NCBI GenBank assembly: GCA_008632985.1
Contig: QPGO01000009.1
Coordinates: forward strand, 496,001 to 560,000
Direction of reading: 5' to 3'
Length of the DNA: 64,000 nucleotides
Source: Psammoneis japonica
Lineage: Eukaryota
This document shows, in pieces, positions 1 to 56,012 of the stretch. Below the pieces are notes generated by a model. The model saw only the letters and a program-made list of their open reading frames with translations, searched no databases and was not told the origin of the DNA. Numbering within the stretch: position 1 is the stretch's first letter; each line of letters opens with the position of its first letter. The translations under genes were made by a program, and so were the position numbers.

Positions 1-2854
1 CCTTGACTGTCTTGGGAGACAGCCTCTGCCTTTTGGACCACGTGTTCATCACTCCTGTGGTTCACCACACCATCTGACAATGGATGCTGCACCAAATGCT
101 GGTTGCCTTCACAGTTGCACTGGGCAAACATGTTCTCAGCCATGACACTGGCCATCAGCTTGGTTTCCTGGCCATCAGGGAACTCAACCTTCTTGTGGAC
201 CCCCGTGCCCAGGATGGGATTGGTGCTGGCCAGTCCAGCTGGTGTGCCATCCAGGTTGAGCATGCACCGTGTGACCTTGCTGGTTCTTTGGCACATGTCC
301 CCATGTGGCAGCAACACCTCAGCATTCAAGAGGATGTCATGGGCTGCGTCAGGCAGTGTGTCCTCATCTGGGGCATTGGACGAACCTTGTCCTGAATCAT
401 CCTTGTGTGGGTCAAAGGTGGGAGCAATCACATCAGGGTTGCCAATGTTGCTGATGGTCATCCCAGGGCCTGGCTTGGCCTCCATGATGGTGTCAAACTT
501 GTCACGCATGAGTGCATCTTGTGGCGCAGTTCCTCAGGTGTGAGTGGTCTGCAGGAGGATCAGCAGATGACCCATCCATTCTCCTTGAGTGTCTTTGCAG
601 TCATCACTGGTCTTGCGTCCCTGCTTGGGCCTGGGCACCTCCCTGAGACTTCTTTGTCACAGGGAATGGGACAGCCATGTCCCTGAACATGACCCAGTCA
701 TGCCATCTGACCTCCCATGTGTGTGAAACATTGGCCTTCTGTCCTGACACCACTGTCTCCAGCACTTCACCATTGAGCTTGCAAATGCCATGAAGGGCAT
801 CAGACCAGATCAGAGCTCAAATTCAAGGCAGTCATCCCACAGACGTTTGGGTGCCTGAGTCTTGACCATCTTGTGCCCAACACCTTGCTTGAGCTTGTGC
901 ATGGTGCCTTTGGCAAAGTTGGACCAAGGGGTGCATGGCTTGGTCTGTCAAATGTGGCAGTCCACCACTTGCACCATCTGCTGTCATGGTGTGAGGCACC
1001 CCATCTTGGGTGAAGAGCAGGGGCAGTGCCTCGTGAGCAAGACCTTTGGATCTCATGTGATGGGCATGTGCCCAGCAATTGGCCATGCCAAAAACTGGGG
1101 CACATGTGTCACCGCATCTTGACTTGACAGAAGAGAACAGGGTGTGGGAGCACATCTCCTTTGCAGCGTGGCTGCAATGGAGTTGGCGGTCATTCATGCG
1201 GAAACAATGTAACAGCATTGGGTGCAACATGGTTTGGGCACCGCGCTGAGTGGTGGCCTTGACTGCATTCTCTGTGTCCTTGACACTGATGGACCAATTC
1301 TTGGCCAGCTTTTCAGCATCTGTCTTTAAACCCCATTTTGTCATCTTGAGCAAAGAGAGGCCAACAGAGGCAAGGAGCATGCATTTGTCACATGCATTGG
1401 AAATGTCTTGTGCTCTGAAATGGTTGGTTTCATGGTGGGAAAGCAGCTCTTGTAAATCCATTGAGTTTTAGTGGGATCACCAATTGGTTGTGTGAATCCG
1501 CGTCCTTGAGTGTCACTGCATGTGATGTGCTGTCAGGCTTTGTCAGCAGGAACTTGGGCTTTAAAGTTGAGCCCTGCCTATTCAGCCACAGTTGCGTGGG
1601 ACACAAAAGGCAGTGTTCAAGATGTGGGATGTGGACAGCTTGGTGGACTGCCAAGATGTGGTGTTCACCCAAGGTGGGGTCCGTGCACATCATGGCACCA
1701 ATGATGGTGTGCAAGCTTTTGCCAGTGCCCAAGTCTGGGTCACAACCAACAATGTCTGCTGGGTGATCATGATCAAGCAGAATTGAAGCACATTTTCCTG
1801 ATGCACTTGTGTCAGCATGACCATCTGTCTCAGTCCAAGATCCCCCTCGTGCTCAGCTTCTGTCATGGCAGTCTGAGTCAGGTGCAAAGAGGTTTGAAGT
1901 GGGCTGAGATGCATGACCTTGGGAGGAGGTCACACCTTCCTCCAGCCAGGCTCACAGCCACCAATTTTGTCACACCTGTTCTTGGCCATGGTGTCCTTGA
2001 GAAGAGCAAGATTGTTGTGATTGCTGCACTGCTTGAGGATGACAGGCAGCTTTTTCTCCTCCTCATTAGAGTTGCTTGCAGCATTGTCCTGCTGACCTTC
2101 AAGGTGTGCTTCAATGGCAGCTGCAGTCCAGACAAGAAGGTTGACTTGCTTGGCAGCATCTGACTTGGAATCATTGCATGCATGCCATCATGCAGGGACT
2201 TGAGCTTCTTGTGCACCTTGGGAGAGAATCGGCCGCCATGTTGTTTGTTGGCATGGTGCTCATCCTCAAGTCAATGATGTCCTCAGTGTGGATCACACCA
2301 CACTGCTTGAGCTTGCCAGTCTTCACAGCTGCAATGTGCAGTGAAGGGTTGAAATCCTTGCCAGGCTTGGATTGTTTGAAGAAGTCCTTGCAAAGTGCAA
2401 CCCAGGCATCAAAGTCGCATGATCTGCATGTTTTGACTGAGTCAAGCTTTGGATCCTTGACACTCTCTAGCAGGTGGCAAACCTTGAACTGTTTGTCAAT
2501 GCCATCACAGCCACACTCCTTGAGTCCTTCAAGGATTGTGTGTTGTTTGACATGAACACGTGTGCAGCACTCGAAGTTCCAGTTGCACTTCTCCCTGTGG
2601 CATGAGAGGCCTGCCAGGCACTTCTCGGCAACACTGGCCACATTGTCCACATCATTGGGACCTGGAGAGTGGTTGCACAAGTTGCAACAGGTGGCCCTGC
2701 CATCCTGTGTGTGTTGTGCTGACTCAACATGAGCCCAGCATGAATGCTCTATGGTGATGCCAGATGCCATCGCCCAAACCTTGTGGTTGTCGGGCACAAA
2801 GGTTTCAGCAGGCTGGAGATCATCAGCCCCAAGTGTGGCAGCATGGGGCGCACA

Positions 2855-4750
2855 AGCAAAATCATCTTGGCAATGGCATCCCCATTGCAGTTGGCCTGGT
2901 CGTTGTCTGCTTCAGGTGTGACAGCCGGGTTGTTGCAAGTCACGCAGGCCACGGGTGTGTTGGTCTTGCCCCGGCGTGCATGCAGATGTTCTGTGACAGA
3001 CTCTGCAGTCTTTGGCCAGTCCTTCTCAATGATGTTCAGTGGGGCATCTGGTGCAATGCAGGAGGACTCAACAGTGTGGAGGTGACAGCATCCCCTGATG
3101 CAGTTTAGGGTGACATTGGCAGGATGCAGGTTGCAGGAGATGGGGTGCAGTGGCAAGCAGCGCAAGCGGCGAGCTTGAGATTCATCTCCCCTGGCACGCA
3201 GGGAGACAGCAGTGCCCAAGTTGGGCTGAGGTGGATCTGCTGGGTCTGCTGGAGGAGCCATTCCTCCTGGCCTGCAGATGACCTTGCACAAGGTCTTGAC
3301 CTGGTGGTTGTCCAAATGATGCAGAGTTCATCGACCGAGTCGATTCCCTGCTCATTGGCTGAGGCTGCGGACCCTGAGTCCATGAAGCCCAGATGACAGC
3401 ATGCAGTGTGCATCATTGCAATGGCTGCCATGGTGTTGTCAAAAGGGTGGTGGTTGGTGTTGAAGTTTGTGCAGTGTGTGAAAACTCACAATTCTGGGAA
3501 AAGTGAGGATGATGCACACACTCCGCATTGCTTTTTCATCGTTGCATGTGTTCCGTTAGTTTCATGTGGCCAACATGCCCACAATGAGACACTCACAAGC
3601 AAAATCATCTTGGCAACAGCATCCCCATTGCAGTTGGCCTGGTCATTGTCCACTTCAGGTGTGACAGCCAGGTTGTCCCGAGTCAAGCAGGTCACGGGTG
3701 TGTTGGTCTCGCCCCGGCGTGCGCGCAGATGTTCTGCGACAAACTCTGCAGTCTTCGGCCACCCAGTCCTTCTCAATGATGTTCAGTGGGGCATCTGGTG
3801 CAATGCAGGAGGACTCAACAGTGTGGAGGTGACAGCATCCTCTGATGTGGTTGAGGGCAACATTGGCAGGATGCAGGTTGCGGGAGATGCGGGTGCAGCG
3901 GACGGGTTCCAGTCCCAGGTGGGATTCCGTGTGACATTGGGCCAGCAGAATTCTGCGTGCAAGCTCCGCAGTAAATTCATGCTGCAATGAAAATGTGTGT
4001 GATCACCAACAGAAAAAGAGGCAATTTTATGAACATGTCTCCTCCTTCATGCTTGCAGCACATCATTGACAGTTTGCCTGGGTGTGTTCTTCAGACATTT
4101 GAGAACACACCCAGCGCATTTTCATCATCACAAATGTTGAAAATAGAAAGCCTTTGGCTTTGCAAAACAGGGAGCATGAAACAATTTCGTAGAATGTCGC
4201 ACATAGAAATGCACGTGCGCGACATGCGGTGTGATCCAAAAAACCATTGATGTCACAGTTTGGCAGTGCGAGGTCCCACCTGGAACTGGAGCATGTCAGC
4301 GGCGAGTGGCGCAAGCGGCGAGCTTGAGATTCATCTCGGCCGGCACGCAGGGAGACAGCAGTGCCCAAGTTGGGCTGAGGTGGATCTGCTGGGTCTGCTG
4401 GAGAAGCCATTTCTCCTGGCCTGCGGATGACCTTGCACAAGGTCTCAACCTGGTGGTCGTCCAAATGATGCAGTTCGTCGACCGAGTCGATTCTCTGCTT
4501 GTTGGCTGAGGCTGCAGACCTTGCGTCCGTGAAGCCCAGATGATGGCATGCAGCACGCATCACTGCAATGGCCGCCATGGTGTTGTCAAAAGGGTGGTGG
4601 TTGGTGTCGAAGTTTGTGCAGTGTGTGAGAACTCACAATTCTGGGAAAAGTGAGGACGATGCGATGCGCGCACACTTCGTATCGCTTTTACAGTACATCG
4701 TTGTATCTGTTCCGTTAGTTTTATGTGGCCAACGTGCCTAAAATGAGACA
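2855..4750 (-). repeat. Internal tandem duplication of the 5' gag region of the copia element
   Basis: ~3160-3590 matches ~4310-4750, and ~2855-3140 matches ~3595-3890. Two gag starts at 3431 and 4578. Confidence 0.9.
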
Positions 4751-4790
4751 TGCGTGGTTGAATAAAATATTCACGTTCGTAAGATCTACT

Positions 4791-5177
4791 TGATCGATGC
4801 TGATGGTGAGTGCAAAGTATAATATCGTGAATTATACAGCGAAATAGTATTTGTGTCTGGACATAAAACTGGATTTTAGCGACGAACTTGCGTTATGTCT
4901 TTCATAAATGAATATATTTTAAAATATGATATTATCACCCAGCGATTTTCAAATCGCTCACGCATTTGCTCCGAGATAACTTCGGAATGGAAATGGCGTC
5001 CCAAATCCATGGATTGCACTCTGTGTTCGCGTATGTACTGCATGAAACACATCAGAATAGTCGATACTGTAGTAATCAATAAGTATTATAGTCGAACTCT
5101 AGCTTGGGAGTAAGTAGCCAACTCGTCAAGCACGAGCACCGCTTGTACTCTTAGATGTTTGCTCGTCATCCCTGACA
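4791..5177 (-). repeat. Putative 5' LTR of the copia element
   Basis: TG...CA-bounded segment (tgatcg...cctgaca; minus strand starts TGTCAGG) just upstream of gag, with normal TA and CG content. The second LTR is outside the window, so it is unconfirmed. Confidence 0.5.
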
Positions 5178-5419
5178 CGGTGGAACGAATGCCAGTGTTG
5201 CGAAACGATCGCAAGCGAAATCATCGATACCATTGTTGCTACATGCGGCATATGGCTCTGATAAAGTGAATAAAATACCCTGTGGTCGCACACACTGGGG
5301 AAAGTTTAAAAGAAAGCTTGTGACATCGTGCTGCTATTTTCGAGAAGTGAGCTCACCCGATGAGCTGACATCGAATTGGCTTATCGCTAAATTCCTTATT
5401 CAATGTACAAATTATCACA

Positions 5420-8400
5420 AATTAATTTCACATGGTAAACTCTTCAAATGGCAGGGGTGCTGAGGACATTTTGTTGTCATGTTCATGACTCCTTTTGGTC
5501 TGTTCATGCAGCAACACATCATGCATTTTCTCAATGTCAACCTTGAGCCGAAGGGACCCAGAACACACACATTTTTGTTTTGCCTGTCTTGGGTGCATCT
5601 GCCAGCACAGACCTTCTCCAACAAAGAGTTTGGCAGTGGTGGCTCTGTGGAGATGGATGAGACAGCATTCTTGGACTGGCTCAATGCCCCCCAGCTTCGA
5701 AGTGAGTTCACACTCATTTGTGGAGGATGAGGGCTTCTTGCAGGTGTGTCATGCTTGCAGGTGTTGTGTTGCAAGTTGCACACTGCAGCAATTTTGTGTC
5801 TAGAGCCAGATGTTGCAAAGGGGGCAAAGAAAAGGAAAACATGGGTTGCAAACCCTGGACAACAGAAACAAAAGACATCACAGAATGCCAAGTGTTTGTC
5901 TGCTGACAATGAACCCATCTGCTGCACGGAAAGCATTGCTGGGCTGGTGCTGTTGGAGAAAACAAGAGCTGGACCCATCTGCTGCATGTGGAAAGCATTG
6001 CCAGGCTGGCACTGTTTGAGGAGACAAGGGCATGGCTTCCATTGAAGTGTGGCAAAGATGTGCAAGAAACTGGAAGCTGCTGGCTGGCAATGTGGTGGAT
6101 GCAAATGATTTGAGTGCATCAGAAGCAGAAGAGTTTTACAATGCTGTTGCTGTTTGAAAGCACATGCAAGAAAGGTTGTGCTGCATGTGGCTGTTGTGGT
6201 TGGAGTTGACTGTGACTCCAATGCAGGCAGAGTGTCCAACATTGGTCCAGCCAAAATTCAACATCTCATTGGAGAAAATGATTTGGTGCAGAGCAATTGT
6301 TTGAGAGCACTGTTTCAAGAAGAGAGGCTTGCCAATGGCAGTCCTCAGCATGTGTGCACATTGGCAATTTTGTGCAAGCCAGGAAAACATTGTCAATGAT
6401 GACACCAGCACAGGAAACAAGGTTGCTTTTGTGTGTGCTCCTGTTGCCCACAAATCAATTTGTTGGATCTTGCTTCATGACAAACAACAAGGTCAGAGTG
6501 GCACCCAGCATCTTGAGGAAGGTGCTCAAACTCAAGAAGTCACTCTTTGGGCTCAAAGAATTTTCAAGAAATTTCTCAATTTTCTGAGTTCAAATTTGTG
6601 AGAAGTGGGCTTCAAACAAAATCAAAAAGCAGACCTCCCCCTTGCCTCTTCATTTCAGAAAAGTGCCAGCTTGGTGCCTTGTCTTCATGGAGAGCACTCT
6701 CCTCTGTGCTCTCCAAAACTGCCTCACAAAGATTGTTGCAATCCAATGTCCCCATCAATGGTCATCATGCAGGCTCTGCAGTTTGTTTTGGATTGTCTGG
6801 TCATTTGAACATCAAAACTCATGCCTGAAAGTGCTCTTTTGACAATGGAAGCAAGCACAAGGCACATGGTCTCTGTGCACTCTGATTGATTGCCAGTGGA
6901 ATGGGCCTTGCTTCAAGGCACATTTGCTTCTCAGCTGTGAGTCATGCCAGTGGGTGGATGTGATGCTTGTTGAGGGGATGAACAGAGCGTGCATCCTGTT
7001 GGGGAAGGTGCAAGAGTGCAGGATTGTGCCAACTTAATTGCTCTCTGCTGCAGAGCAGGTGGTGAGCAGTTTTTCTGTGACCTTGCCATGGGAGTTTCCT
7101 CAAATCCTGCACCTCAGCTTCCATCAATGGCCAAACACTCTCTTGTCTCATGCCACACACTGAAGCAGGCACTCTGCAAAACACCATTGCTCATTGAATG
7201 GATTTGGCAGTGAGTGCCTTGTTGCTGTTGCGTGAGAAACTCATTCTTAAAACACCAATCTGCAGCCAAGGATTGGCCCCACATGGCACAACATCTGCTC
7301 ACAGAAAGCTGAGCATCAACGCTCTCTTGATTTTTATTTTAAACTGCCAAATGGCATGTGTTTTCTTCCAATTTGCTCACAAGCCACACCACTCATGTTG
7401 AGTTAACAAGACATCACTGATGTGAACCACACAGATTTAAATCATGCAATGCCATGCACAAACTCCACAACGCAACTCTCCAGCTGCAGTTTCCACCAAG
7501 CTTGCTGACAAGAGAGTGCCGCATTTGCTTTTGATGGTGTCCTTGTTGGAGCCTTCTGGCAAGTTGCAAGTCCTTTGGCACGACAGCAACACACTTTCCA
7601 TGAATTGCTCAAAGATTGGCATCTTCAAAGAGTCCAGCCAAATGAGCTTTAGAGGCCTCTTGTGGTGCCAAGATGGCAGAACCTTGCCAGCAAAAGTTTT
7701 CTTTTTGTAACCTTGATTTTTGAGTCTCACACACCAACCTGGCAAAAGGCAAATGATGCAACAACAACTTGGTGCTTCCCTGGCAAGCTCGGATTTCCTT
7801 CAGAGCCTTTTCCCCTGGAAATGAAAATGAGGAAGTGAGCAATTGGGTGAGGAAATTTGAGTTAGATTTGCTGAAATTGCACTCAAAAACATCAAACACA
7901 CCACAGCGCATGTGGTGCTTCCTCTTTGGCTTTGCTTTGACTCAGGTCTACAACCCAAAACTGGAATGTCAGCTCTTGCATGATGGTGTCGGCCTCCAAC
8001 CAAGGTGCCACCAGCACCACTTGCCCTCTGAGATGGCCCCAAAGAATGGATGTGATCTTGTGTCTCACCATGGCCGGCTTCTGCTTCTCTGTTTGAGCAA
8101 GAGACGAGAGAGCAAAGTCGAGCTTTTTGTACATTCATGAATGTTTTTTACATTTGTCACAGAAAAAGCTGTCCATCACTGTCTCATTGTTGTCTGGGGT
8201 GCAGCAGGATTGCATTTTTGTGTTGTTGAGTTTGCCGCCAATTGGTTGATTGCCAAACACACCTGTTGCTTCATGTGCAAAGCTGGGTTTGAGACAGCAT
8301 GTGCCAAGAACAAAACAAAGCTTGTTCACTCACCCCTCAAAGATGTTGAGCTCTCACAACAGTTTGATGATGGAGTGAGCTGATGCACACGCCACTTCTT

Positions 8401-11400
8401 GTCACACGTTGCTGGAGAACATTGTGGTGTTGCAGCTGGCATGGATCAAATGCCACCTCAGCAATCCCTTGGGATGAGTGCACTCCTGAGCACTTCAACA
8501 AGGCTGTCTGTGCAGTCTTTCCACTTGCATTGTGCTGTGAAGCCTGTTGTGCATGTGATGCTGTGGAGCCCCACCTCCCAACTTGCAAAAAGCTGGGCTT
8601 GGCTGAAGCTGCTGCAACACATGTGGATTGCATGGAAGTGTCATTTTGTCACACTGGCCATTCTTTTTGCTGCAGAGCATGCAGGTGAGCAGTTTTTGTG
8701 TGAGCTTGCCACTTCTAAAATCCTGCACCTTGTGTGGTGCGGCGCCCGCCCACCTCCTGCCACCACTCTTGAGCTTGCACTTGTTGTTTGGCTGTTGATC
8801 ACTGTCATTGTCTGCTTGCAGTGGGACTGCATCTTTTTTGTTGTTGAGCTTGTTGATGATTGGTTGATTGCCAAACACACCTGTTGCTTGCTTCATGTGC
8901 AAAGCTGCTCTTGAGACTGCCTGGTGTGACAATGATGTGCAAAACAAAACTGTCTCACTTGCCCTTGAAAAATGTTGAGAGAGCCCTCACAACAGCTCAA
9001 TGATGGAGCTGGACTGATGCACACTTGTTGTCACATTTTTGCCAGAGAACATGGCATTGAAGCATTGTTGCATGTTTGGGGGGTCACTTCAGTAAAATGC
9101 AGCTCATTGGCTGCAGCTTCTCCTTGCCATGCCGGACCAGAAAAAATGTTTGATCACTTTGACAATGACCGCATGATGCTGAAGAAAAAAAATGATCAAA
9201 TGCCACCTCAGCAATCCCTCAGGATGAGTGCACTCCTCCTGAGCACTTCAACAAGGCTGTGCAGTCTTTCCACTTGCATTGTGCTGTGAAGCCTGCTGTT
9301 CATGCGATGTTGTGGAGCCCCACCTGCCAACTTGCTAAAAGCCTTGCTCAGCTGAAGCTGCTGCAACACATGTGGATTGCACTGTGATGTCATTTTGTCA
9401 CGCTGACCATTTGTCTGGCACACCATCCCTGTTCTTTCAACAAGCAAGACAGGTGAAAAATGCCTTGTTCTTTGTGGCAGCAGCAGCAGCCAACCAGCTG
9501 TGTGGGCATGTTTCTCATTGCATGGCTGTGGCTGAAGACCTGTCTCAAACCCATGTGGGGAACACAAGAAAGTGTTCTTTGCCAATGATGGCAAGAATCT
9601 CAAAAAAGGAGTGTGATGGCAGCAGGGGCTGTGGCAGATGCAAGCACAGCAGAGGCAGTCAAGGAGATTGTGAAAGAGACACACCCTGGTCCTCCTGATG
9701 TGATCCTTGTGCAGTGCTGTGCAGCGCCAAGGCTCCAACCATGCATGGTGCTGGTGGCTGCTGCAACCCCCAAGTGATCCCCCAATTGTTGGGGCCCACT
9801 GAGTTGCAATGGTGGACAAAAAGGAAGCCAAGGCTCTGGTGGTCATGGAGGCAATGCCAGAAGCCAAGGACATGGCAGAGAGGATGCCATGGTGGCAGCC
9901 AAGGAGGGCACTGTCACACAATCCCCCATTCATCATGGAGAAGCTCAACATTTGCAGCAATCAAGAAGATGGAGTTGACCATGATGGTGGCCAGCACTGC
10001 CACAATGATCAAACCAGTCAAGCTCAAGATCAGAGCTGCAGATGCCAGCAAGCTTTTGGACAGAATGGAGCTGCTTGAGCAGAAAATGACAACCACCAGG
10101 CTCAAGGAGCTCCTTGTGGCAAAATGCCCCATTTGCCCCTGCAATTGGACAAGGCCCTTCAAGCAAAAAAGGTCTGGAGAGCAGCTTGCCTGACAGACAG
10201 AATCCTTGATGCTGTTGATTTGGAGCTGACAGCTCCAGAGCTGAGTGCTCCCAGCCATCTCACTGCATTGAACCCTGTGTCAAAAGCTTGTGCTGCATTG
10301 AAAATTGCACGAGCAAAGAACATGAGTGAAATTTGTGCTGCAAAGCTGCTGCTGGTCTGTTGTTTTGTTTTGAATGTGCTGCCAGCCACAGATTGTGTGA
10401 ATGATGAGGAGGATGCTTTGACCAAGATGTGCTCAACTTTGGAAAGCTCCTCATCCCAAGATTGCCTCTCAAGCATCCCCAACAGTGCTGTGGCTCTTGC
10501 CACTCTCCTCTTGTGGCGCGCACAATCCACCAGTGGCAAGTGCTGCAAGTGCTTTTTGATTCTGGCGAGTTGCACACACCCTGATCAGCTCCAGCATTTT
10601 TGCCCATGTGGGAGCTGTGCCATCTGTCAGTGAAGAAGGTTTTTGCTTGTTGTCCTCTTCCAAAAACAGCAGTCAGAGTGTTCCAATCAGGGTGGTGGGT
10701 GATGCTTGGCAAAACATGGCATTGTTGGCAGAATCTGACAAGATTCATTGAGGCAACAGTGTGTCAATGCACATCTTCAATGCACACCTTCTTGCACATC
10801 TGTGACATGACTCTGGGCCATGATGTCCTCAGCAAGATCAGGCTGTGAATCAATTTTGACAATGGGGCTTTTCCTCCCTAGGTGCACAAGGTTGTGCCAA
10901 CAAAGGAGGTGAGCCATTTGCCCAAGCTCTGCAGCTGGTGCATTGCACTTGATCATTTTGATCGGCTTGACAACAAACTTGAAGATGAACATGAGTGCAA
11001 AGATGCTGACTGCAGCACTGGCTGCATTTTGGATGTCAAGCACAAACTGACCAGTGTGGCCAAGATCATCAAGAACCTTCTTGATCATCTGATGGACTGG
11101 CAGTGGGAAAAGCCATTGTCCTGTGCTGGAAAAATGTGATGCTTTGTTTGACTGCATGTGAGGAGTCCATTCTCATGAGGAGAAGGTGTGCCCAGAAGTC
11201 AAGAAAAATTCTGCATTCACCCCATCATTCCAGACCATGCAAAGCTCCACAAGCAAACTGAGAAGTGCTCAAAAAGGAGCTCAAGCATCCACTCAACATT
11301 GGAGTGATGTGACCTTGTGGGCCAACTGGGTGGGCACAAATCACCTTTGTCATTCCAAAGAAAGACAACCCAGTGTGCCAGGTGTCCAAGTTTTGTGAGC

Positions 11401-14400
11401 TCAACAAGGTGTTGAAATGAAAGGTCTGTTCTTTGCCAGCAATTCAAGATGTGTTGCAATGTTGTGAATTCTTTGTGAAAATTGATCTTGCCACATTCTG
11501 TTGTCATCTCAAGTTTGATGATGAGAGCAAGAGGAGCCAGCCACTGTCATCACACCACACAGGAAAGTCCACCAGCATGATTGCCGCCACATGACTGTGG
11601 GATTGAAAATTGAAAATGGCTCCCAACATTGTGCAACAATTGGTGGTTTTGACATTGAAGCATGTGTTGACAATGTGGGTGCTTTTGACATTGACTTTGA
11701 TGCTCAGCCAGCTTGTCTTGACAAAGCATTGAATCACATCTGCAGGACAAGAATGGCTTGAAGCAAGGTGAGTCTGCTGAAGTGGGAGAGCAGTGCATGC
11801 TGCATGCGGGAGAGCTGACTGCCTGGGACACTGGCTCATGTCAAGTGGTGTCAAGCCATTAAAAGAAATGGTCAAGGCTGTCCTGTGTGTTTGCAGCTGC
11901 CTCACAGAGTGCTTTGCAACTCTGATCTTTCCTTGGTGTGGCAACCTGTCATCACAACATGTGGCCTCATTGGCTGCATTTCCCAGCTCCACACTCTGAT
12001 TGATTTCACAGGCAAGAGCAAGTTTGAGTGGACCAGTGCATGCAAGAGAAGGTGCTGGATGAGACAAAAGCTGTCAACACATTTAAGAGGTGCTGCTGGG
12101 CTGTCCCAACCACAACCTTCCTTTTCTTCACATCTGCACTGATTCTTCCAACCATCCTCAAATGGGTGCACCACTGTCATCCAAGAAGGCAAACCAGTGG
12201 TGTGCTGGTCCAAGCAGCCATCTGAGGCTCACACCTGGCACAACTTTTCAACCATGGAAAAAGATTTGGTTGCTGTTTCCATGTGCCTCCTCAAAGAGTT
12301 CCACAATGTGCTGCTCAGCACAGATGTTGCTGTTTACACCAGCTGCAAGAATCTTCCCTTTTGACTTCAAAGCACTCACTTGCATTGATGCTGTTTTGCT
12401 GGCTTCACACCAGAGCTTGCTCACATTGACCAGGAAACTTCTCAACACTTGGCTCACAAGTTTTGCAACCTTTGGTCATTTTGTCATCCCAGGCCAAATT
12501 GCTGCACAACAACGGTGGCAAGTTCATCAGCTGAAAATTTCAAATGCTGCTCAAAACCAAGCTGGAACAGTGGACAATGTGCCAACTGCTTCAAGCAGCT
12601 TGACAGCCAATGCAGTCTGGGACAAATGTGCCAGGCAGTGTGGCAGCTGACACCCCTTCTGTGTGCTGCGCTTGTCTCTGGTGCTCCCAAAATCATTCAA
12701 CAAGCAAATGAAGTGGTGGGCAATGTGCCAGCTGCTGCAGTGTTCCAGCAACATGTGATTTTGGACCTGCTGGCAAGTGACAGCAGATCATGCTCCTGTC
12801 ATTCAAGACAGTGATCAAGCTCATTCCTTCCAATGTGGAAGCTTGTGCAGTCAGAACATTTGGGACATTGCAAGTCTGGGCCCATGGAGCTGCACTTGTG
12901 CCACCTGCATCAAATGCAGTGTGGAGTGGAGATTGCTGTGTCTGTCAAGTGGTGCAGTGTTGAGGTTGGGGGGTTTCTTCCCTTGAACACTTGGGTTTCC
13001 CTTTCCTTGCCACAGAGGGAAAGAGTGAGCAGAGCAGTCATCTGGCCACTGTGTTCTGCAGTCATGAGTGCCTCATCTGAGGGAAGCATTGTGTGGGGCT
13101 CTGTCCATCAGCAAGCCCTTCCAGGTTTTCTCACAATTTTCTTAGAAAGTGCTGTTGTCAAGTCTTTGTCAAGCCAGACCTTGCAGGGACATGCTCTCCA
13201 GCAGCTGCAAGACCCACCCAGGGTGCAAACCTCACTCACTCCAGTCAGCACCAGAAGAAAGAAAAACCATGCAAAGTTGACTGCAGCCCCTTTCTCACAG
13301 ACACAATGCATGGAAACTGTGCCAGAAGTGATGTGCCACCATCACACACCTTTTTTCAGAACTCATCAACATGCCAAGACAGCAATGACAAAGGACTCCA
13401 CAGCACATGGTCATGAGAACAAGCAGAAAGCCAACATGGCATCTTGTCAAACCACATGTGCATGCATTGAACCCACCAACATTGGCAAGAAACGTGAAGC
13501 CATCATGGATCTCATGAAAAACACATGTGAAAAAGCAACACTCCAAAGATGATGACAGCATTTGTTGTCCTCTGTTGCCATGCAATGAGACACATGCCTC
13601 CCTGCCCTGATGTGCAGCACTTGCTTCTGAGCAATGAAAGGATCTGATGGAGCTGCAGGGGGCAAGAAGCTTTGAAAAAGCAGCCCTGAAGCATGCTGAA
13701 AAAGGCCTCACAAGCAAGTGAGAATTGTGCAAAACACAAAAAATCAGTGCAGTGTGTAGAGACAAGAACAGGCCACAGCTTGTGAGGGCACCCAGTCCCA
13801 AGTTTTGTTCATGTCAACTGTTTGACAAATTGAGGCTCAAGCACATGAAAACAAAACAAGCTTGTGCACAAGCTTCTGTGGCCCAATGTCCCAAAATTTC
13901 CACTCAGAGCTGGGCCATTGCTCATGAAGGATCTCAACAAGGGCAATCTCTGCAAGCTGACACAGGCCATCCTTTGTGGGGCAGCTCTCTGCTGGCCACA
14001 TTGTTGCACACAAGTTGGGAGCAAGAGAGCACTTTTTGTGTTTTCAGCAATGCCTGAAGTGATGGCTTGGTGGACTCTTGGTTTGAGGGACATGGGTTGT
14101 TTTGCTTCTTGCTTTGCATGCCAAAAAATTCTTGTGCCAACCTGTGCAGCTGGCTGGCAGCTGGTTGCTGCCCACTCTTTGGCCCCATCATGTGACACAT
14201 CAAGACAACAAACTTCAGAGCTGTTTTGGGTGCATCTGTGGTCTGCACACATGCCAAAAATGGCACTTGTTGTGCCAGTGACTCCTCAATTGACTGCCCC
14301 CATGCTGTGTGTGTGTGTGGCTTGCAGCCACGTCTGCAGCAACAACTTTGACACAAAAACTTTGATGCTTTGGCAAACAAACAAGTGCAGGTGCAAGCGC

Positions 14401-14950
14401 ACATGTGGGCCTCAGCTGGTTGACTGAATTGCCCCAGTCAACAGCTCCCAGTTTTCGAGAGTGGGCAGCAGCACAGCAGCTTTAATTGAAAGCAGCAGTT
14501 GCGCACATCTGAAAAAATGATTTGGAGTGCTGTGTGATGTCAGTGGGCGGGCTTTCATCAAATGGTTTTTGCCCACAAGACCAAACATTGCAAGCCCTCA
14601 AATGAAGTGTCTCAGGCTGGATTTCCCAAATTTCGCATGTTCCAGCCACCTCTGTTTTTGGTTGGAGAGTGCGCTTTCAGTTTTTGCATGCTTGCACCAA
14701 CTTGGAGTGTCCTTGAGCTCAATTCATTGCCTTTGACAGTTCACTTCTTGACTTTTTTGAGAAGCTCACATTCTGTTCGCATGGTGGCATTTGTCTTGTT
14801 TTGAAGAAGGCATCAGATTCTCGGCGTCCATCTTTTCATGACTTCCTGCCACAACAAAAAATTCTGTTCATGACGCTGGACACAAGCCCCGCAGACGACG
14901 ATTCAGCGCTGGACGGATGTCTGTCACAGTGTGTCATCATGATGCCACTC
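5420..14950. other. TpA- and CpG-depleted hypermutated domain; original content not identified
   Basis: About two dozen TA dinucleotides by eye in ~9.5 kb. The ORFs are almost Tyr-free and Cys/His-rich. No recognisable domain. Confidence 0.85.
8200..9410. repeat. Diverged tandem duplication within the hypermutated domain
   Basis: ttggttgattgccaaacacacctgttgc occurs at ~8242 and ~8860. gatcaaatgccacctcagcaatccct... occurs at ~8444 and ~9194, with similarity extending ~200 bp further. Confidence 0.85.
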
Positions 14951-15911: not shown

Positions 15912-18900
15912 ATGTCTACTCGAAATGCATCGGGCAGGTATGGTGGTAGTATCGGAAATTCAGTGTCCTTTGACAAGGATGTCCACGATGCGTCGCCTCA
16001 CGGTCTCTACGATGAACCGCCCTCCGAAGGAAGCGCCCCGCGACATACGCAATTTCTGGATCTGACCAACGGCGAAGGAGGAGGCGGAGAAAGCTCTTTT
16101 AGCCCTGAGAACACAACCGAAGAACCTCGGCCTGAATCTACAATTACTCGTCCTACTACCAGCAGTATGAAACGTCCCGCACGATTTGACCCAAACACGC
16201 CCGGTAGAGTGGTGGAAGCTGGCCAAGAGCACACGGGGCGCTGGACTCGGGAAGAGCACGAAGCGTTTCTTAGCGCTCTCCAAATGTATGGGAAAGAATG
16301 GAAAAAGGTAGCAGCCAAGGTGAAGACGAGAACGGTGGTTCAGACAAGGACTCATGCGCAGAAGTACTTTCAGAAATTACATAAGGTGATGAATGGTGCG
16401 GAGGGTAAAGGAGAAGTCGCGCATGTCGAAATGGGGGTCGCCGTAGAGGCCAAGAAGGCTAGTGCACAAAAGAAGAAACGTTTACCCCGGCAGCAGTCTG
16501 CTTCGACTCAGGCAGCCGCGCATCTCATGACGAATTTATCATCGGTGCCTCAGACTGTAGCGTCGGTGAGTCCGTATGCTTCTGGTGGCGCTCCCGCTGC
16601 CCATGGTTCGGGTCACTTTCCCACTCCTCATGGATTCTCCACGTCGTCGTCGGGAGCACCGAATGAGCAACCCCTCCGACAACCGCATTCAGTGTCGTAT
16701 CAAGGGGGCTTTGGGCCAATGAAGATTAAGGCTCCTGACCCAGATTCTGCCTTTGCGCGAGGAAAATTCCCCGAACCATCACCGGCAGCGTGTGGGAAGA
16801 GGAAGGTGGCAGAGATTGCCGCGGCCCGAATGCTTGCCGGTGTGGCCGCGATTGGGGGTAGCACAGGAAAGGCTAAGAAGAAGCGCGCTTCTCTTGCGGG
16901 TGACGAAACTCCTCCTCCTCCTGATGCTGAGAAGGGTCCGGCTGCTATACCCAACGTGGCGAAGGGGCTCTCGCTTCAGATTGTGAACCCCGAGTCTCTG
17001 GGTGTGCCGCATTCGGGAAACAAGAAAAGGAGGGGCTTAGATGGAGAGGCCTCTCCGACAACTCCGTGGGATGGTCAGCTAGAGGCACTTGTCAGGTGAG
17101 TGTCATGCGTGTGCACTGCTTTTTTTTTTTTAAGGTTTTTGTTGTTGGAGCCTAACATGTACCACCTTCTCTGTACGGTTAGCGAGTCAAAGAGCAAGGA
17201 AGCTATTAAGAAGAGTGAAAACATGGAGGACGACGCGGACAATGACCATGACTCCTATTTTTACCCTCACACAGTGTGTGGGCCGGGATCTTTGTATGGT
17301 AGATCGGCTTTGCATAAGGCAGTTTGTGATATCAATGTTTTGTCAGTCAGCAATCGTATTGACAATGATGGCAAGGCGCTTGTCTGTGAAGCGGACGAGT
17401 GTGGCTACTATCCAATCCACACGGCGTCGTCGCTTCGCATGGTAGAGCCTACTGCTGCAGCAGCAAAGCTTGTACGAATTTTGTTATCGAACGGAGCTGA
17501 TCCTGCTTGTGTTGATACCAATGACAACACTCCTCTTCATTGGGCGGCTAGGGCTGGTGACGAAGACGTGGCGCATATGCTTCTAATGAAGAATTGCCCT
17601 CTTGGTATGTGACACTATATTTGGTGATGTCCATTGGCAAAAGCCTCGTTGTATCTTTGTGCTCTTAACATTTTCTCTTTCTTTGGAACAAAGATTCCCA
17701 GAACAAGCAAGGAGATACGCCTCTTCATGTGGCGATGCGCATTGGCCGCAAGGGTATGGGTGTAGTTGCCGTCTTGTTAAAAAATGGCGCTCGCTCCGCG
17801 GCATTCAACAAGCAATTCAGAAGGCCACTGGACGTTGCAGCCGATGGATTCTCTGAAGAGTCGAAAGCGGGTTTGTCTCCAAGTGGTTCGAGTGGTGACC
17901 TGAAAATGACTAAGAAGACCAACAAATCTGAACAGAAGAAGCTGCAGATAGCCAAAACCGAAGAAGTCCGTGACACTCGCGCCAACTTTCTCAGACTCTC
18001 GCCAAAAGCTCGAACCCTTGTGCTTCACCATCCGGAGTGTCTGGAACATATTCCGAAGTCTGAAAGTGATTGGGAAGTTCCTGATCGCGTCGAGTCTATC
18101 ATGAGACGAATCGTCCCACCAGTGGGCTCCACGGAAACGACAGGTATCTTTCCGCACGAGGTGACGGTTTCAACCGATTTTGAAAAGGCAGAGATCGAGC
18201 TTCTTAGCCGTGTGCACAGCACCGAGTATTTGTCATTTGTTGACTCTCTGAGCAAGGAGCTCGAGCGCAAGCAACAAGAGGCGTTGTCTGAAACGAACGG
18301 AGATTCGGACGAAGCCAGCGACAACAAGTCGGCACACGCTGCAGGGGTTCCGTTTACGCCAATGGTAAGCTCACACTCTAGGTTTTGTTCTCTGCGTGTT
18401 TCAACATTGATACTTGCTCACACCCATACTCTCCTATCAGGTGCAAAAATCAATGATGAAGTTCGATAACGTAAAACAGGCGGCTCACTCGGACACTTCG
18501 TTTAGCGCTGGGTCTCTTCGTGCAGCAAGAAGAGCAGCCGGTGCAGTACAGCATGCGGTGGATAGGTGGGTCTAGTTTTTGCGCCGTCCCGTCGCCAGGT
18601 CATTATTTGCTTCGCTTTTTTGCTGACAAAATGCCTTTTGTCTCATCTCGTCGTGACAAAGAGTTCTTGTGGGTCGTGATAGAAATGCGTTTTGCGTAGT
18701 TCGGCCGCCTGGTCACCATGCTGGTGTCCAAGGCCTTTTGGACGGGGGCGAATCATGTGGCTTCTGTATTTTCAACAATGTTGCAGCTGGTGCGATGCAC
18801 GCGATATCGGACGAACGTCTCATTTGCGAGCGTTGCGCTATTGTGGACATTGACGCACACCATGGAAATGGCGTAAGTGTCCCCGATGAGTTGTGTCTTG

Positions 18901-19918
18901 GTCTTGTTTCGAACGATGCTCACAGAGTTTGTTTCTTTTGTTTTCGGTAGACGGAAGAAATTGTGAAAAAGTGCTACGACCCGGGGAGGCTGTTTTTCTT
19001 TTCTATCCACCTCTATGACAACGACAAGAGAAAAAGCAACCCGTATAAGTTCTACCCTGGAACTGGTGACGAAGATGACATCGCTCACAATATCATCAAC
19101 GTGCCTATCACTCCGCTGTGGAAGCAACAACGAGATAGCCCCTCGCAAGTTCCGGCTGCTCCCAAAACATTTCACAACACACGCCGAAAAGCGAAGGAGG
19201 CAGCAGCCGCGGCTACTTTCCCTCCACCACCACCCTTCGGGGACGATTCCGCACCTTCGTCATCTCTTCTACTGCCAATAGGCGATTCTCCGCGAGATTC
19301 TGTTGGGGGCTACGAATCATCCTCGGAGTATGGGGGTGGAGGTCTCGAAAGCGCTCGAACAAGTGACGCAGAAAGTGTGTCTCAAAGAAGTGCAGCTGGC
19401 ACATCAAAGCCGGGGAGTCCACGGTTCCTTCCTGGATCTGGGCGTCATGCGTACCGACGGGCAATTCAGCATCGCCTCATACCTGCTCTCCGTGCTTTCA
19501 ATCCCGACCTTATCTTAATCAGTGCGGGCTTTGATGCTGCCAAGGGCGACGTAGGGAATGCCAAGCACATGGTTGGACGCAAGGAGAAAATGGGAATGGA
19601 TCTATTGCCGTCTGATTATGGCTGGGCAACAAGAAAGGTATGAAATCTGCGGTTATTGTGGGATCGTTTCTTGATCTCCAGTTTTCAGCTTCTAACAAGT
19701 TCACTTTTGTGTTTCAGATTTTGGAAGTGGCAGATATCTGTTGTCAGGGACGGGTCGTGTCTGTGTTGGAAGGAGGGTACGGACGGACACCAGTTGTTCC
19801 TACTGATGACGGCTCTACTGGCGATGGACGTCTTGACAAGAGCTTGTTTAGTGAATGCGCTGTTCGGCATTTGCAGGCAATGGTTGATCCGTACGACTCG
19901 GAAGCGCGATTTTCTTAG
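15912..19918 (+). CDS. Myb/SANT (SHAQKYF-class) + ankyrin repeat + class II-like histone deacetylase fusion protein, 7 exons
   Basis: Exons 15912-17095, 17183-17604, 17694-18364, 18441-18565, 18662-18872, 18951-19717 region split as 18951-19637 and 19718-19918, joined by GT-AG introns; the junctions I translated preserve frame. Motifs: GRWTREEHEAFLSAL..YGKEWKKVA..RTVVQTRTHAQKYF; ankyrin NTPLHWAA and GDTPLHVA; HDAC RPPGHHAG, GFCIFNNVA, DIDAHHGNG, SAGFDA, LEGGY. Confidence 0.92.
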
Positions 19919-20239: not shown

Positions 20240-23200
20240 GGTTGAAGAAGAAATGGGCCATCACTGTGTTGAGACGCTGAGACGGATCGTTAGAAACCAT
20301 AAGATGGCAAAGAGCAAAGAGACGTGCCATGGGGCTCTCTCTTTTGATGTCAATCAGGAAACATGGTTTGTTGCAACCGGCGGCATTTCCACCTCACAAA
20401 TGCATGATTTGAAAAAGAAGATGAATCAATGCACCCATGAAATTGTGCAAAGCACTCCTGCTGGAATCCATTGCCATTGCACCAACAACAGCACTGAAAG
20501 ACATTTGTTGCAGCTGCCAGGGGCGACACCCATCAGGACAGTGATGCCAAGGACAGACCACCAGCACTGCAATGACCAAGCTCTTGCTCTGTTTTGCTTG
20601 GGACTTGCAGCAGTGATTTCACCAGTGACATTGGGAGCAAGAATGTTGTGGTCTGGTGAGAGCAGTTGATTCTTTGAGTGACAGAATGCAGATCCCTCCC
20701 ACCCTTCTTAGCACACTCCACTCAGCCATTTGTGCCCAACAGAGTGTCTCCAGAACATGCCAGTCAATGGGAAGAGGGGACAAAGGTCATGGGCATTTTG
20801 TTCAGATCTTGTGAGTTTGCCACCAGTGGCTCTCCACAGCCATTTGTTGTGAGAGGGGGTGCAGCAACAATGAGCACCAGACAAGGAGCAGATGTCCAAG
20901 AGACAAAGTTTTTTGATCACTTCTCCACAGCTCTGTCTGTGCAAGAGGAACTTGACATTGTGTGCTCCAAAGATGAGAGTGAGAATTGTTCTGGCTTAAA
21001 CCAGGATGAGATTGAGCACCCCCCAAGGAACCAAAATGTGATTGCCAGTTTGAAGAGGACATCACTGCTGGCTTAGATGGCTTCTTTTTTTGCACATTTT
21101 TGGTGCAATGCACCCTTGTGGGCCAGGTTTGTGGCGCATGTGATGATCCCCAAATGTGTGGTTTGCTGCAGTCACAAATGCTGCCACACAGCAGCTTCAA
21201 CATGCTGGGCAAATGATGCATGCCAAATGATCTTTTTTCTTGACTCAATCTTCCCCCCACATGTCAGCTGCATTGTCATTTCCTGACATCTGTGACATGC
21301 TTGTTGATGAGATGGAGGCAACAAGGTGTCAAAGCTTGCAGCAGCAACAAAGATCATCAGTTTTCAATGGCAGTGATGGGCCAGAACCTTGAAGTGCAGA
21401 GTGAGGTGTGCAGCAAAGAAAGTGTGAGAAAATCTGGTTGGGCCACTGTGTTGATGCATGGGACCTTCTGCCTTGTTTTTCTCTTGGTTGTGAGGATCAA
21501 GAGACACTCAAAAAGAAAAAGACTTTTAGCAGAACAGCTGTTGATGTGCGCAGCACTCTGTGAGGTGCAGCTTGAGCTCACCCCTCATTTTCTCCTGTGA
21601 TTGCACTTCTGTGATTGCCCTGTTCATCATGATGGATTATTTTGGGGGCAGCTGAGCACAAGTGTCATTTTTCAACCAATCTGTTTGGGCAACAATCAAG
21701 CACCTGGAGCAGTTTTGAAAGAAGAGAAAACCATGATGATGGATGAGCCCAGCATGACTCCTTGCAGCTGTGCAGGGGGACTTCATGGCAGATGGTGTCT
21801 CTGTCTCTGCTTGATAGCCCCACACTTTTGCAATTTGCTGTGACATCCTTCTTGCAAGAAGCAAGATTCAGGGTGGAAGAATTTTGCTCAAACCATCAAT
21901 GGCACCACTGCTTTTGGACCAATCCAACATTGGTGAGTTGAGCTGCCTCACTGTCCCCTTTGTTCACACAGTGCATCCCATCAAGATGGCACCAACAAGT
22001 GAGAGGAGGCAACAATTCATTTGGGCTTGATGCCTTGGCAAAGGTGCATCACAAAGATGAGACACCAACAACTTGTTGCTGATGCTGCTTTCTCAATGAT
22101 GTTCCTCTTGCACACATTGCATCTTTCCTTTGCAAATTCCATCCAAGAAGTGTGCCACTTTCATGAGCATCCCCCAACTTGTTCATCAGTGGCATGTGTG
22201 AGAGAACTCAGGAGTTCCCCCCAGTGCCAGAGAAAAGTGAGCTTCCAGATCTTTGCCTGGGCACCTCTGATGATGTTGCATTTTGGAGTCCTTGCATTGC
22301 AGAGATGATTTTGCAGGTGTGCTGCAACACAAACTTGCAACACAGACATCTTTTCCTCAAACACTTTGGTGCCTGGGTGGTGCTTCATTTGTTGCAAGCA
22401 TTCAGCGAGCATGGCACAAAACTTGAAAACTGCAAGTTTGTTGATTTTCTGAGGACCATTTTTGGAAAGGCAAAAACAATGATCATCTGCGCTCTCAGCT
22501 CCTTGCCAAACTGACTTGAATTTGTGACTCATTGTTGGCTGTCAGTGGAAGTGAAAGCCTGATGATGCACAAACATTGCCTTGGAGATCAGCTGTCTTGG
22601 CATTGGCTGATTGCAACGCGAATGATGTTGATTTTGCCGTGCAATGCCACAGGTGTGTTTGTCATGTCACTGGGCAGAACATCAAGCAGAGCCATTCCTC
22701 ACATTTGCTTTGCTGGGTGCACCCAAGCAAAATGGAGATGATTGGCAACAGAGCTGGCTGCTGCATTGTGGAAAATGTCTTCCATGGCCTCCAGAAATTC
22801 GAGGGTGCTTTTGACTCCAGAGATGTGGGATCTTGTGAAGTGGAGGACTTCTGGGAGGAAGTCACCACATTTCTGCAAAAAGCATCTTGTCTCTGCCAGC
22901 CACATGCAAATCAAGCTGAACCTGTGTGACTGTTGTCACATTTTTCTTAAAAAACAAGCTGTGACACTGCAGACTGCATGTGTTGTGGGAATGTCTCTGT
23001 GCTTTGGACAAGGCAGAGTCAGCGGATCACCCAACAATTGCTTTGACAACAAGAGTTTGTTGCTGCACATGCTTTCTTGGCTTGACATTGATTGATGGAG
23101 TCATCCTTCTGCTCCAGAGCTCCTGTTCTCAGCTTGCCCCGGAACAAGCAAGGCACATGAGGGGTGGGTTGAATGATTGTAAAAGACAATGGCAGTGGAA

Positions 23201-23660
23201 GGCACAGGCTCTGCCAGAAGTGTGCACCCACTTGGAATTGCTCCATCAGCCTTCTGGCTTGAACAGCACACAGTTTCATTGCCCTCTGCGGTGTTGGCTG
23301 CACTTGTGTTTTCTCAGAGACCTCTGGGCTTTTGCCAGCGGCTCGTTTTCAACACAATGTGTTTCACAGGTGTCCAGGGGTTTGCAACAACTTGACCAGT
23401 GCAAATCAAAAAAGGCAAAAGTAATTTTGACCATGCACACAGTGAAAAATTGCATTGCAGCTTGCTCACAGCAGCCAGTGCAGCAACAAGTGTGTCTCCC
23501 AGCTGTTTCTGCCTGGAACCACTCAGCCCTTCTGCAAGCAGCATGATGTGGGTTTCATTCAAAATCAAACAAAAAAATCCAAAGGACAGGCTTGGGCATG
23601 GACTAAAAACATGTAGAGATGGAACGAGAAAGAGTTCAGCAAGTGGCAAGAGCCACCAGT
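20240..23660. other. TpA- and CpG-depleted hypermutated domain; unidentified remnant
   Basis: Same compositional signature, with sharp return to normal composition near 20200 and 23680. Confidence 0.8.
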
Positions 23661-23757
23661 GAAGATCGTCGCATCATCTTTTAGCGAAAAAGAATGAGGC
23701 AAAGATACAAAGTTAAACAGCATTTAGAACACACCGGCACATGATCATTTTAGTTTT

Positions 23758-26014: not shown

Positions 26015-27349
26015 CCGTCCTAGCTTTTTGCGATTGGATCCAAACAACGAGAATCTAGTTGGACCCCCCCCCCCGTGTCGACTCTTGGGTATCTTCTACT
26101 TCCTTTTCTCTTGGTCGTACAGATTAAGAGACACTTGAAAAGAGAAAAGGCTTCTCAGCGGAAATATTGTCGATGTGCATGGCGCTCCGGGAGGCGGCTT
26201 GAGCTCGCGCCTCATTTTCTTCTACCAACGTATGATTATTTTATTCGCGACCGATCTATTTGGGGGGCAATCGAGTACCCGTGTGATTCTTCTTTTCGCC
26301 ACCGATCTCTTTGCACGACAATCGAGTACCTGGAGCGGTTTAAAGAAGGGAAATTTTACGATTTTCTGACATCCTTCAAACAAGAGGCAAGATTCGGGGT
26401 AGAAGAATACCGTTCTAGCCATCAATGATGCCAGTGCTTATGGATCGTCGTAAGATCACGGAGAATCCGACATCGTCGAGCGGACCTATCTCTCTATCCC
26501 CAGTATTCAAAATGCACTATGTGGCTTTTATTGCGCACTTTTTGAAAGTATGAGCATTGATATTATAGTCTAGATGGCACGGGTGGAGGAGCCCTGTGGC
26601 AAGTTTGTTGTATTGTGGGAATGGTTCTCTCGGCCTTGGACAAGGAAGAATCAGTGGAAAACGTTTTATGACAAATGCGGTCGCATCGTTTGCCTATTAC
26701 TTTGGCGAGAAGAGACTGTCGCAGCGTATGTTTTTTTGGTTGGATGTTGATGCAATCGCCTTTGCAGTATTACCAAACGGTTTCCTTCGGGTCAAGACGA
26801 ATTTTGATAAGGAAGTCACTCGACTTGTGAGGTTGACGCATGAGGTTATCCTGAGACATCTCTAGATAGACTATGTGCATACTCTCTGATAAGACATTGC
26901 CAGCAGAAAACAACTACGAGCGTAGCTAGCATTCCATACCAGGCAGGCGATTGCAACTACCAAATGATTCAAGAACATTGCCTAAAAGCATCCGATGCCA
27001 TAGCAGCTGCTAACACTACTTGTCTACTGTAATCTTTGTTAGTTTTTTTCTTATCACTAGAGATCCCATTGAAAAAAGATCTTTACAACACAAAAGATAG
27101 ACAAGAGCTGTTTTAGGCCAAGTACGATCTTGAAGTAGAAGGAGCTAGAAACAAAAGACAGATCGTGTCGTAGGCCCCATCCCCGAGCACACAGTGCCGT
27201 GGACCTCCTTCTACATGGAAATCTGTTTGCAAGGGACCACTAGTAGTCTATTTCCCAATAGAACAGCTCGGTAAAGATCGATGCAGCATTCCACGAGATG
27301 GAAGATCCGAAAGATATCAAGACAAAATAACATTCATGCTCATAAAAAT

Positions 27350-43567: not shown

Positions 43568-43837
43568 GTCATCCCGTAAAGCATAGTATTGATCCTACGT
43601 AGGTACAACTTGGAAGTCATTCGAACATAATTGTGACGTGCGTGGCGGTGGCGGGAAAGGGCAATAGGGGTGTTCAGCGTCGGCGAACGGCGAGGTCTTG
43701 AAAAGTTCTTGCTCAGGCAGGCCATCATCAAAGGGCAACGCAGTGTTCACACTGACAAGTTATTACTGTGGTATCGGAGTAGGTGGTGACTTGTACTATC
43801 GATTATCAAAGATTTGTGTATAGTATAGAAGCCGACC

Positions 43838-55920: not shown

Positions 55921-56012
55921 AAGCATACATATTCATCGATGTATGTCGGTAATCCAAACTGAAAATTGACCCATTACCTTTCTGTCTTTCTTCATAATTG
56001 TGGATGTCACTT

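Follow-up and report, generated by a model that had tools for sequence, protein, structure and literature searches.

In a 64,000-nt stretch of the genome of the diatom Psammoneis japonica (GenBank assembly GCA_008632985.1, contig QPGO01000009.1, positions 496,001 to 560,000 of the forward strand; hereafter the window, in whose coordinates all positions are given), a tandem duplication with a 745-bp period, which takes in the 5′ leader of a copia-like retroelement on the minus strand and the beginning of its gag, lies across the edge of a domain that has lost almost all of its TA dinucleotides (an erased domain). Four sites that read TA in the leader copy lying just outside the domain read CA in the copy lying inside it, and we consider it probable that these four CAs were derived from TA by a DNA hypermutation that is specific for TpA (A:T>G:C) and bounded by the domain, not by homology. 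In the history that we propose, the transposon-filled domains of this diatom would undergo hypermutation at the DNA level, in which 5′-TA-3′ on either strand is converted to TG or CA and hardly any TA remains in the end. A piece of 745 bp from an already dead element would have been duplicated in tandem, after which one 71-nt copy, ~1.1 kb inside the erased domain, would have had four TAs converted to CA, with one surviving, and the other, just past the domain edge at 4680, would have retained all seven, the process being active still, or again, after the duplication. Decay of CpG to TpG or CpA would be a second and slower process, with a load that falls gradually toward the edge, and would presumably reflect deamination of 5-methylcytosine in methylated transposon DNA.

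Inner and edge copies of the leader

In the edge copy, TA stands at 4680, 4704, 4722 and 4739, and the inner copy reads CA at the aligned positions 3526, 3545, 3563 and 3580; all eight coordinates, which had been given in the original prediction, were exact. Six of the seven edge TAs can be aligned, of which four correspond to CA, one to TT and one to a retained TA (4716/3557), and the seventh (4689) lies inside a 5-nt indel. Nine substitutions fall in the 66 aligned columns of the leader segment 4680–4750, four of them on the six T-of-TA positions (Fisher p = 0.0023). The homologous core as a whole contains 737 ungapped aligned columns, 670 of them identical and 67 different. The inner copy had further been predicted to carry several changes of CG to TG or CA, and 21 of the 37 aligned edge CGs indeed read TG (12) or CA (9) there, with 13 retained and three otherwise changed; in the opposite direction, the 17 CGs of the inner copy correspond to CG (13), CA (3) or AG (1) in the edge copy. 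In addition, nine adjacent dinucleotides read TG in one copy and CA in the other, and each of these double differences needs a CG or TA ancestor.

The original prediction also held that the load of changes depends on position within the domain; this is the case for the decay of CpG, whose load changes gradually toward the edge, but not for TpA, the loss of which is all-or-none and ends in a sharp step at 4680. No TA occurs in the 383 nt from 4297 to 4679, and seven occur in the 71 nt that follow (4680–4750). Segment by segment toward the edge, the TA density is 3.2, 3.4, 2.3, 0, 12.4 (X, an insertion described below) and 0 per kb up to 4679, and 98.6 and 75.8 per kb beyond it, whereas the CG density in the same segments is 10.5, 20.3, 24.8, 36.8, 32.2 (X) and 62.7 per kb up to 4679, and 56.3 and 53.9 per kb beyond it. 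Because the paired segments of the two units, A/A′ and B/B′ (Table 1), were identical at the start, this gradient of CG density is a true difference in load. When 11 domain edges were pooled, the CG density ran inward as 32.7, 28.0, 15.1, 21.8 and 16.0 per kb, whereas the TA density stayed at 1.1–3.6 per kb up to the border; at certain edges (5437 and 20301, for instance) the change in CG is abrupt.

That both strands are hit, as had been supposed, was borne out by several observations. The discordant TG/CA pairs split 5:4. A second pair of homologous sequences, located at 26075–26444 in normal DNA and at 21448–21918 in erased DNA (~70% identical), served as a control, and its 18 TAs correspond in the erased member to TG (7), CA (3), TT (3), other dinucleotides (4) or a retained TA (1), its 22 CGs to CA (11), TG (8) or others (3). 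The variance of the TG–CA imbalance at 100–400 nt was 1.15–1.51 in erased DNA versus 1.41–1.77 in normal DNA. Since this variance is no greater in erased DNA and both products are seen, both strands are hit, without long one-strand tracts and without any excess of strand clustering.

Each unit of the duplication consists of the leader with the gag start (B in the inner unit, B′ in the edge unit) and a continuation of gag (A and A′). B′ aligns with B at 87.7% identity, and its translation matches the N-termini of the gag homologs; a 2-nt indel shifts the frame of B, and A lies in frame with B within the open reading frame (ORF) 2749–3327. X, which resembles a miniature inverted-repeat transposable element (MITE), has inverted arms at 3895–3924 and 4274–4303 (30 nt each, 80% complementary) and comes with a direct repeat, 9 nt long, of target sequence (3893–3901 and 4295–4302). 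Its family is present in very high copy number, with a summed contig depth of 34,000–169,000 versus ~62 for the flanks. Most differences between other copies of this family and X in the window are exchanges between TG and CA at neighbouring positions (3978–3979, 4050–4051, 4245–4246 and 4261–4262, among others), as if the family too descended from CG or TA sites.

Contigs from a public sequencing run (X1; word depth ~56–75) differ from the window at 0–1 positions over 2800–3045, 3064–3222, 3225–3792 and 4374–5600, and span both the junction between the inner leader and A′ and that between the edge leader and the adjoining un-erased island; the assembly may itself have been built from this run, which is thus not independent support. 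The X1 contigs read T where the window reads C at 3756 (a CpG; all of the depth) and at 3515 (about half of the depth), mismatches that may represent polymorphism or a paralogous copy.

Polarity of the changes

The carrier of the duplication is a Ty1/copia-like element, with gag followed by an integrase region, homologous to copia-type polyproteins bearing an RVT_2 reverse transcriptase. A protein of 1,323 aa (P0001; RVT_2, PF07727) aligns over window positions 1753>36, and 95 gag homologs of the ORF 2749–3327 were found at E ≤ 1e-3; the reverse-transcriptase part of the element falls past the left end of the window. Within the window, no long terminal repeat was identified for this element. 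A search for near-length homologs of the integrase ORF returned nothing, a search among longer proteins returned P0001 only, and none of the seven ORFs of 1–6257 matched Pfam. For gag, 54 metagenome relatives were retrieved, and a nine-sequence gag alignment was used for the locus scan.

The claim that TA is ancestral and CA derived was upheld by the coding columns, by the composition of the relatives and by TA density. We defined a conserved pol column as one in which a residue is present in at least 60% of P0001 and up to 26 metagenome relatives. Of the 12 columns with a conserved Tyr, none is Tyr in the window, where the residue is Cys (3), His (2), Phe (2) or another (5), whereas conserved Trp, Cys and Gly are retained at 4 of 5, 3 of 3 and 19 of 26 columns, respectively. 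Compared with P0001 only, none of 19 aligned Tyr residues is Tyr in the window, and 7 of the 16 ungapped ones are Cys or His. In gag (54 homologs), Tyr column 367 is CAT and column 382 is TGC in both copies, whereas Arg columns 109, 239, 312, 369 and 385, which are CGT, CGC or CGG in the edge copy, are CAC, TGC, TGC, CAT and TGC in the inner copy. The observed/expected (o/e) ratio of TA is 0.40–0.92 in all 54 metagenome gag relatives versus 0.06 for 1–4679. In the coding part, TA and CG are the ancestral states.

At the four leader sites themselves, the context points to the same direction, TA to CA: the TA density of the edge leader (98.6 per kb in 4680–4750) matches that of the adjacent unique DNA (75.8 per kb). 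Another copy of the leader was sought in one read set and none was found, the depth at 4680–4773 being 68 versus ~62 for single copy; and when both units were compared by blastn with the 54 metagenome loci, only a coding piece of 37–46 nt was aligned, with no leader.

Targeting, timing and alternative explanations

Two features of the window bear on what the process recognizes. A 2.3-kb direct duplicate in normal DNA (23757–26013 and 27349–29625, 96.2% identical) is not erased; its copies share 89 TAs, and changed TAs are sparse and symmetric (13 in copy A and 11 in copy B of this pair). That this pair is untouched and that only the domain-embedded 71-nt copy was rewritten argue against a sensing of duplication of the kind that underlies repeat-induced point mutation (RIP). 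Similarly, a DDE_3 transposase block (34001–35031) is erased just as the retroelement is, which argues against RNA editing returned to the genome by reverse transcription. What is targeted appears instead to be set by a domain with sharp limits, most probably a state of the chromatin, with the step at 4680 as its probable boundary.

With regard to timing, the copies share the same product at all six columns (6/6) at which a conserved Tyr or Arg codon was lost in both, indicating that part of the erasure is older than the duplication. Younger than the duplication are the four leader changes, the 21 CpG losses confined to the inner copy and the nine discordant pairs. Arithmetic from the pair counts shows that independent CpG loss predicts ~2.4 discordant pairs versus the nine seen, an excess suggesting that both copies went on losing TpA once the duplication had occurred. 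X was also inserted after the duplication, and its TA density is intermediate (12.4 per kb). The simplest history is that the process was repeated or continuous.

The TAs that remain suggest a preference at the −2 base, one that the products do not confirm (below). The 79 residual TAs over all erased domains are strongly biased to T-flanked contexts: T is the flanking base in 79 of the 158 strand contexts versus 641 of 3,028 in normal DNA. TTAA is ~6-fold over-represented among the survivors, whereas ATAT and ATAC survivors number zero, versus 97 and 218, respectively, in normal DNA.

Several points weigh against the interpretation that we prefer. The four leader sites have no outgroup, and their polarity comes from context. 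All four changed to CA, a strand bias that is not significant in so small a sample. The products shared by both copies at 6/6 columns imply that much of the erasure took place before the duplication. Hot CpG sites could partly explain the excess of discordant pairs, one of which (column 232) is better explained by an ancestral CG. One of the two peptide patterns used to retrieve relatives requires Tyr or Phe and is thereby biased against erased relatives. Finally, a rule at the −2 base is not borne out by the product trinucleotides, among which TTG and CAA gained most.

As to chemistry, we favour an enzymatic route in which a deaminase resembling TadA/ADAT or ADAR (adenosine deaminase acting on RNA) would act on T-preceded adenines in DNA, since the 5′ T context fits the preference of TadA/ADAT and ADAR for a 5′ U; the same chemistry has been proposed for Bigelowiella natans (below). 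The best-surviving alternative keeps the same process and places the lesion on the other base: the thymine of TpA would be the target and would be read as C, or replaced by C during repair, for example after oxidation to 5-hydroxymethyluracil, after a different modification of T or through aberrant repair by a glycosylase. TA is self-complementary, so T>C and A>G are indistinguishable from the sequence. In dinoflagellates, 5-hydroxymethyluracil replaces T preferentially at TpA. According to the available part of one report, T>C changes arise through aberrant thymine-glycosylase repair in TpG/CpA contexts in human cells (PMC4041421), which provides a precedent for this route. However, no such modification was encountered for diatoms, and the B. 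natans authors, in the accessible portion of their report, favour adenine deamination, on indirect grounds. We therefore regard a thymine route as unlikely, although it stands well ahead of the remaining alternatives.

A second alternative is that double-stranded transposon RNA was edited from A to I by an ADAR-like enzyme and that the changes were fixed via reverse transcription and re-insertion. Both the type of base change and the preference for a 5′ U/T are those of ADAR, and the element at this locus is a retrotransposon. However, the two copies arose by tandem duplication in place and diverged afterwards with no new retrotransposition, and their junctions are bridged by contigs; the DDE_3 DNA-transposase block is erased too; and erased domains of 3–9.5 kb include stretches with no recognizable retroelement. 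In B. natans, moreover, the available text describes changes arising de novo in a single-copy integrated virus. Editing through RNA is thus improbable.

Slightly less probable still is the reverse polarity, under which the inner CAs would be ancestral and C>T changes at CpA, similar to those of RIP and acting on the duplicated copy, would have produced the edge TAs. Fungal RIP makes TpA from CpA in duplicated DNA, which offers a precedent, and the leader has no outgroup. Such a process, however, would need to hit the last 71 nt alone, given that 4297–4679 of the same copy contains no TA; the island shows no shortage of TG (o/e 1.32) or CA (o/e 1.06); the coding tests all give TA and CG as ancestral; and CA>TA changes cannot yield the nine TG/CA double differences.

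Ordinary neutral divergence, for which it may be said that the copies are 9% diverged and that transitions are the commonest change everywhere, is very hard to reconcile with the concentration of leader substitutions on T-of-TA positions, with the sparse and symmetric TA changes of the normal 2.3-kb pair and with 383 nt lacking TA beside seven TAs in 71 nt. Equally improbable is an artefact in which misread modified bases or misassembly made the TG and CA calls unreal, as the X1 mismatch at 3756 might hint, since the X1 contigs (again, possibly from the assembly's source) reproduce the erased sequence of both copies and their junctions, and a long-dead element would be expected to have lost conserved Tyr and Arg codons, to be frameshifted and to have received an insertion such as the MITE-like one.

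Related systems and the other erased domains

The hypermutation that we propose for P. japonica is, judging from its sequence signature, the same kind of process as the hypermutation of B. natans. In the available part of the report on that species (Mettrop et al., bioRxiv 10.64898/2026.01.13.699255), 230 of 231 mutations in hypermutable regions of mutation-accumulation lines were A>G or T>C, and the GC-biased changes were all at TpA; the de novo changes lie in integrated DNA of nucleocytoplasmic large DNA viruses (NCLDV) and virophages, and TpA-poor clusters are enriched for reverse-transcriptase and DDE domains. The signature is identical, with A:T>G:C only at TpA, giving TpG or CpA according to strand. 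The systems differ in lineage (B. natans belongs to Rhizaria, and the present species is a diatom), in the extent of depletion (Rho 0.45 for the B. natans NCLDV region versus TA o/e 0.02–0.06 here) and in the coupling of CpG decay with erasure in the older domains here, of which the accessible portion of that report makes no mention. Occurrence in real time has been shown in B. natans, as described there, whereas the process in P. japonica is proposed from sequence comparison. A full-text literature search found no description of TpA hypermutation in diatoms, and the available sections of a paper on diatom DNA methyltransferases (PMC9998398) mention neither hypermutation nor deamination.

RIP in Neurospora and other Ascomycota resembles the changes described here in that dinucleotide-specific transitions on both strands ruin transposon coding sequences and leave neighbouring genes intact. 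The direction is the opposite, however: RIP makes TpA from CpA by C:G>T:A, whereas here A:T>G:C destroys TpA, and D1, the domain containing the duplication, has a TA o/e of 0.06 with TG and CA enriched, and the polarity tests show that TA was lost and not gained. RIP is, moreover, triggered by duplication, whereas here the 2.3-kb pair is untouched and one of the two 71-nt copies was spared. RIP depends on a RID-type DNA methyltransferase and on the sexual cycle. The diatom methyltransferase DNMT4 is related to RID, according to the available part of the paper cited above (PMC9998398). ADAR and TadA/ADAT share with the present signature the conversion of adenine to inosine (read as G) with U/T directly 5′, but act on RNA, whereas here the change was fixed in place in genomic DNA, the DNA-transposon block included. 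The changes at edge CGs resemble the CpG decay of methylated transposons, and diatom transposons are reported to carry methylation (PMC9998398, available sections); CpG decay, however, cannot account for the loss of TpA, which is complete even where CG o/e is 0.60 (D4) or 0.83 (D6).

We tentatively go one step further and put forward, as a possibility to which we give somewhat less than even chances, a diatom 'inverse RIP': a TpA-specific DNA adenine deaminase would act episodically on silenced transposon chromatin, with borders sharp almost to the base pair and independently of homology, and would represent an old genome defence of the SAR (stramenopiles, alveolates and Rhizaria) lineage, on the grounds that the same signature occurs in an alga of the Rhizaria. 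If true, a major group of marine primary producers would disable its transposons by rewriting TA to TG or CA, a change that leaves the target with no Tyr codon and no TAA or TAG stop. So far there is a single experimental precedent for the process, in an unrelated alga. To surveys of composition, the present locus adds a comparison of the same sequence inside the domain and at its edge, with a boundary sharp to the base pair; it argues for a bounded chromatin state over repeat recognition, and for renewed action after a datable tandem duplication. Fast, all-or-none TpA erasure set against slow, graded CpG decay may also provide a relative clock for dating insertions.

Erased domains (Table 1) make up ~44% of the window in total. 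In the six full domains, TA o/e is 0.02–0.06 and TG/CA o/e is 1.41–2.02, whereas normal DNA has a TA o/e of 0.55–0.69, a CG o/e of 0.93–1.00 and a TG/CA o/e of 1.10–1.27. Erased DNA contains the copia-like gag-pol (with gag and a protease/integrase region in D1), the DDE_3 transposase and the MITE-like insertion, whereas normal DNA contains an ABC transporter, FG-GAP and other ORFs; the targets are foreign or selfish DNA and not host genes. The DDE_3 block has one TA in 1,031 nt, so that here the loss of TpA has run to completion and the decay of CpG is only at its start; terminal repeats delimiting this element were sought and none were found. Because CpG is largely retained in D4 and D6 while TpA is gone, TpA loss is the faster or the earlier change.

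Table 1. Coordinates of the duplicated units, the insertion X, the un-erased island and the erased domains (window positions; o/e, observed/expected).
Feature	Position	Strand	Remarks
B (inner copy)	3148–3591	-	leader 3591>3432 and gag start, ATG 3431–3429
B′ (edge copy)	4297–4750	-	leader 4750>4579 and first 94 gag codons, ATG 4578–4576
A (gag continuation, inner unit)	2851–3145	-	~90% identical to 3594–3892
A′ (gag continuation, edge unit)	3594–3892	-	4-nt insertion shifts frame
Terminal 71 nt of edge copy	4680–4750	-	outside erased domain; 7 TA and 4 CG present
Inner counterpart of 4680–4750	3526–3591	-	four CA sites; TA retained at 3557
X, MITE-like insertion	3893–4296	.	edge unit only; gap in unit-versus-unit alignment
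D1, erased domain	1–4679	-	16 TA in 4,679 nt; TA o/e 0.06, CG o/e 0.29; runs off left end
Un-erased island	4680–5436	.	59 TA; TA o/e 0.86, CG o/e 1.35; AT-rich
D2, erased domain	5437–14950	.	TA o/e 0.04, CG o/e 0.09; no Pfam match in 18 ORFs
D3, erased domain	20301–23421		
D4, erased domain	34001–35031	-	DDE_3 (Tc1/mariner-type) transposase remnant; TA o/e 0.02, CG o/e 0.60
D5, erased domain	49273–55801		
D6, erased domain	56553–59563		CG o/e 0.83
Seventh erased domain	opens 63623		cut by window end

Much of D2, D3 and D5 is without recognizable content. Among 43 ORFs of the other erased domains, Pfam returned only ankyrin repeats and one weak match, a silence that is to be expected of hypermutated coding sequence. 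The ankyrin-repeat ORFs lie in two frames at 51816–52876, in an erased domain (D5) that retains much of its CpG. At the DNA level they are no duplicate of the ankyrin/deacetylase gene at 17100–19643; a dead host gene copy, transposon cargo and a viral sequence are candidates for their origin. A further tandem duplication (8168–8662 and 8791–9411, ~82% identical) lies wholly within an erased domain and has one aligned TA left in total. The genes of this eukaryotic window are intron-poor, no tRNA genes were found in it, and the best named relatives of the ABCG transporter at 43829–45844 are all from diatoms, at ≤61% identity. The island that adjoins the edge leader (757 nt) resembles a second one at 55802–56552 (751 nt) in GC content (0.40), TA o/e (0.86) and CG o/e (~1.3), and both are sandwiched by erased domains; no sequence homology was detected between the two.

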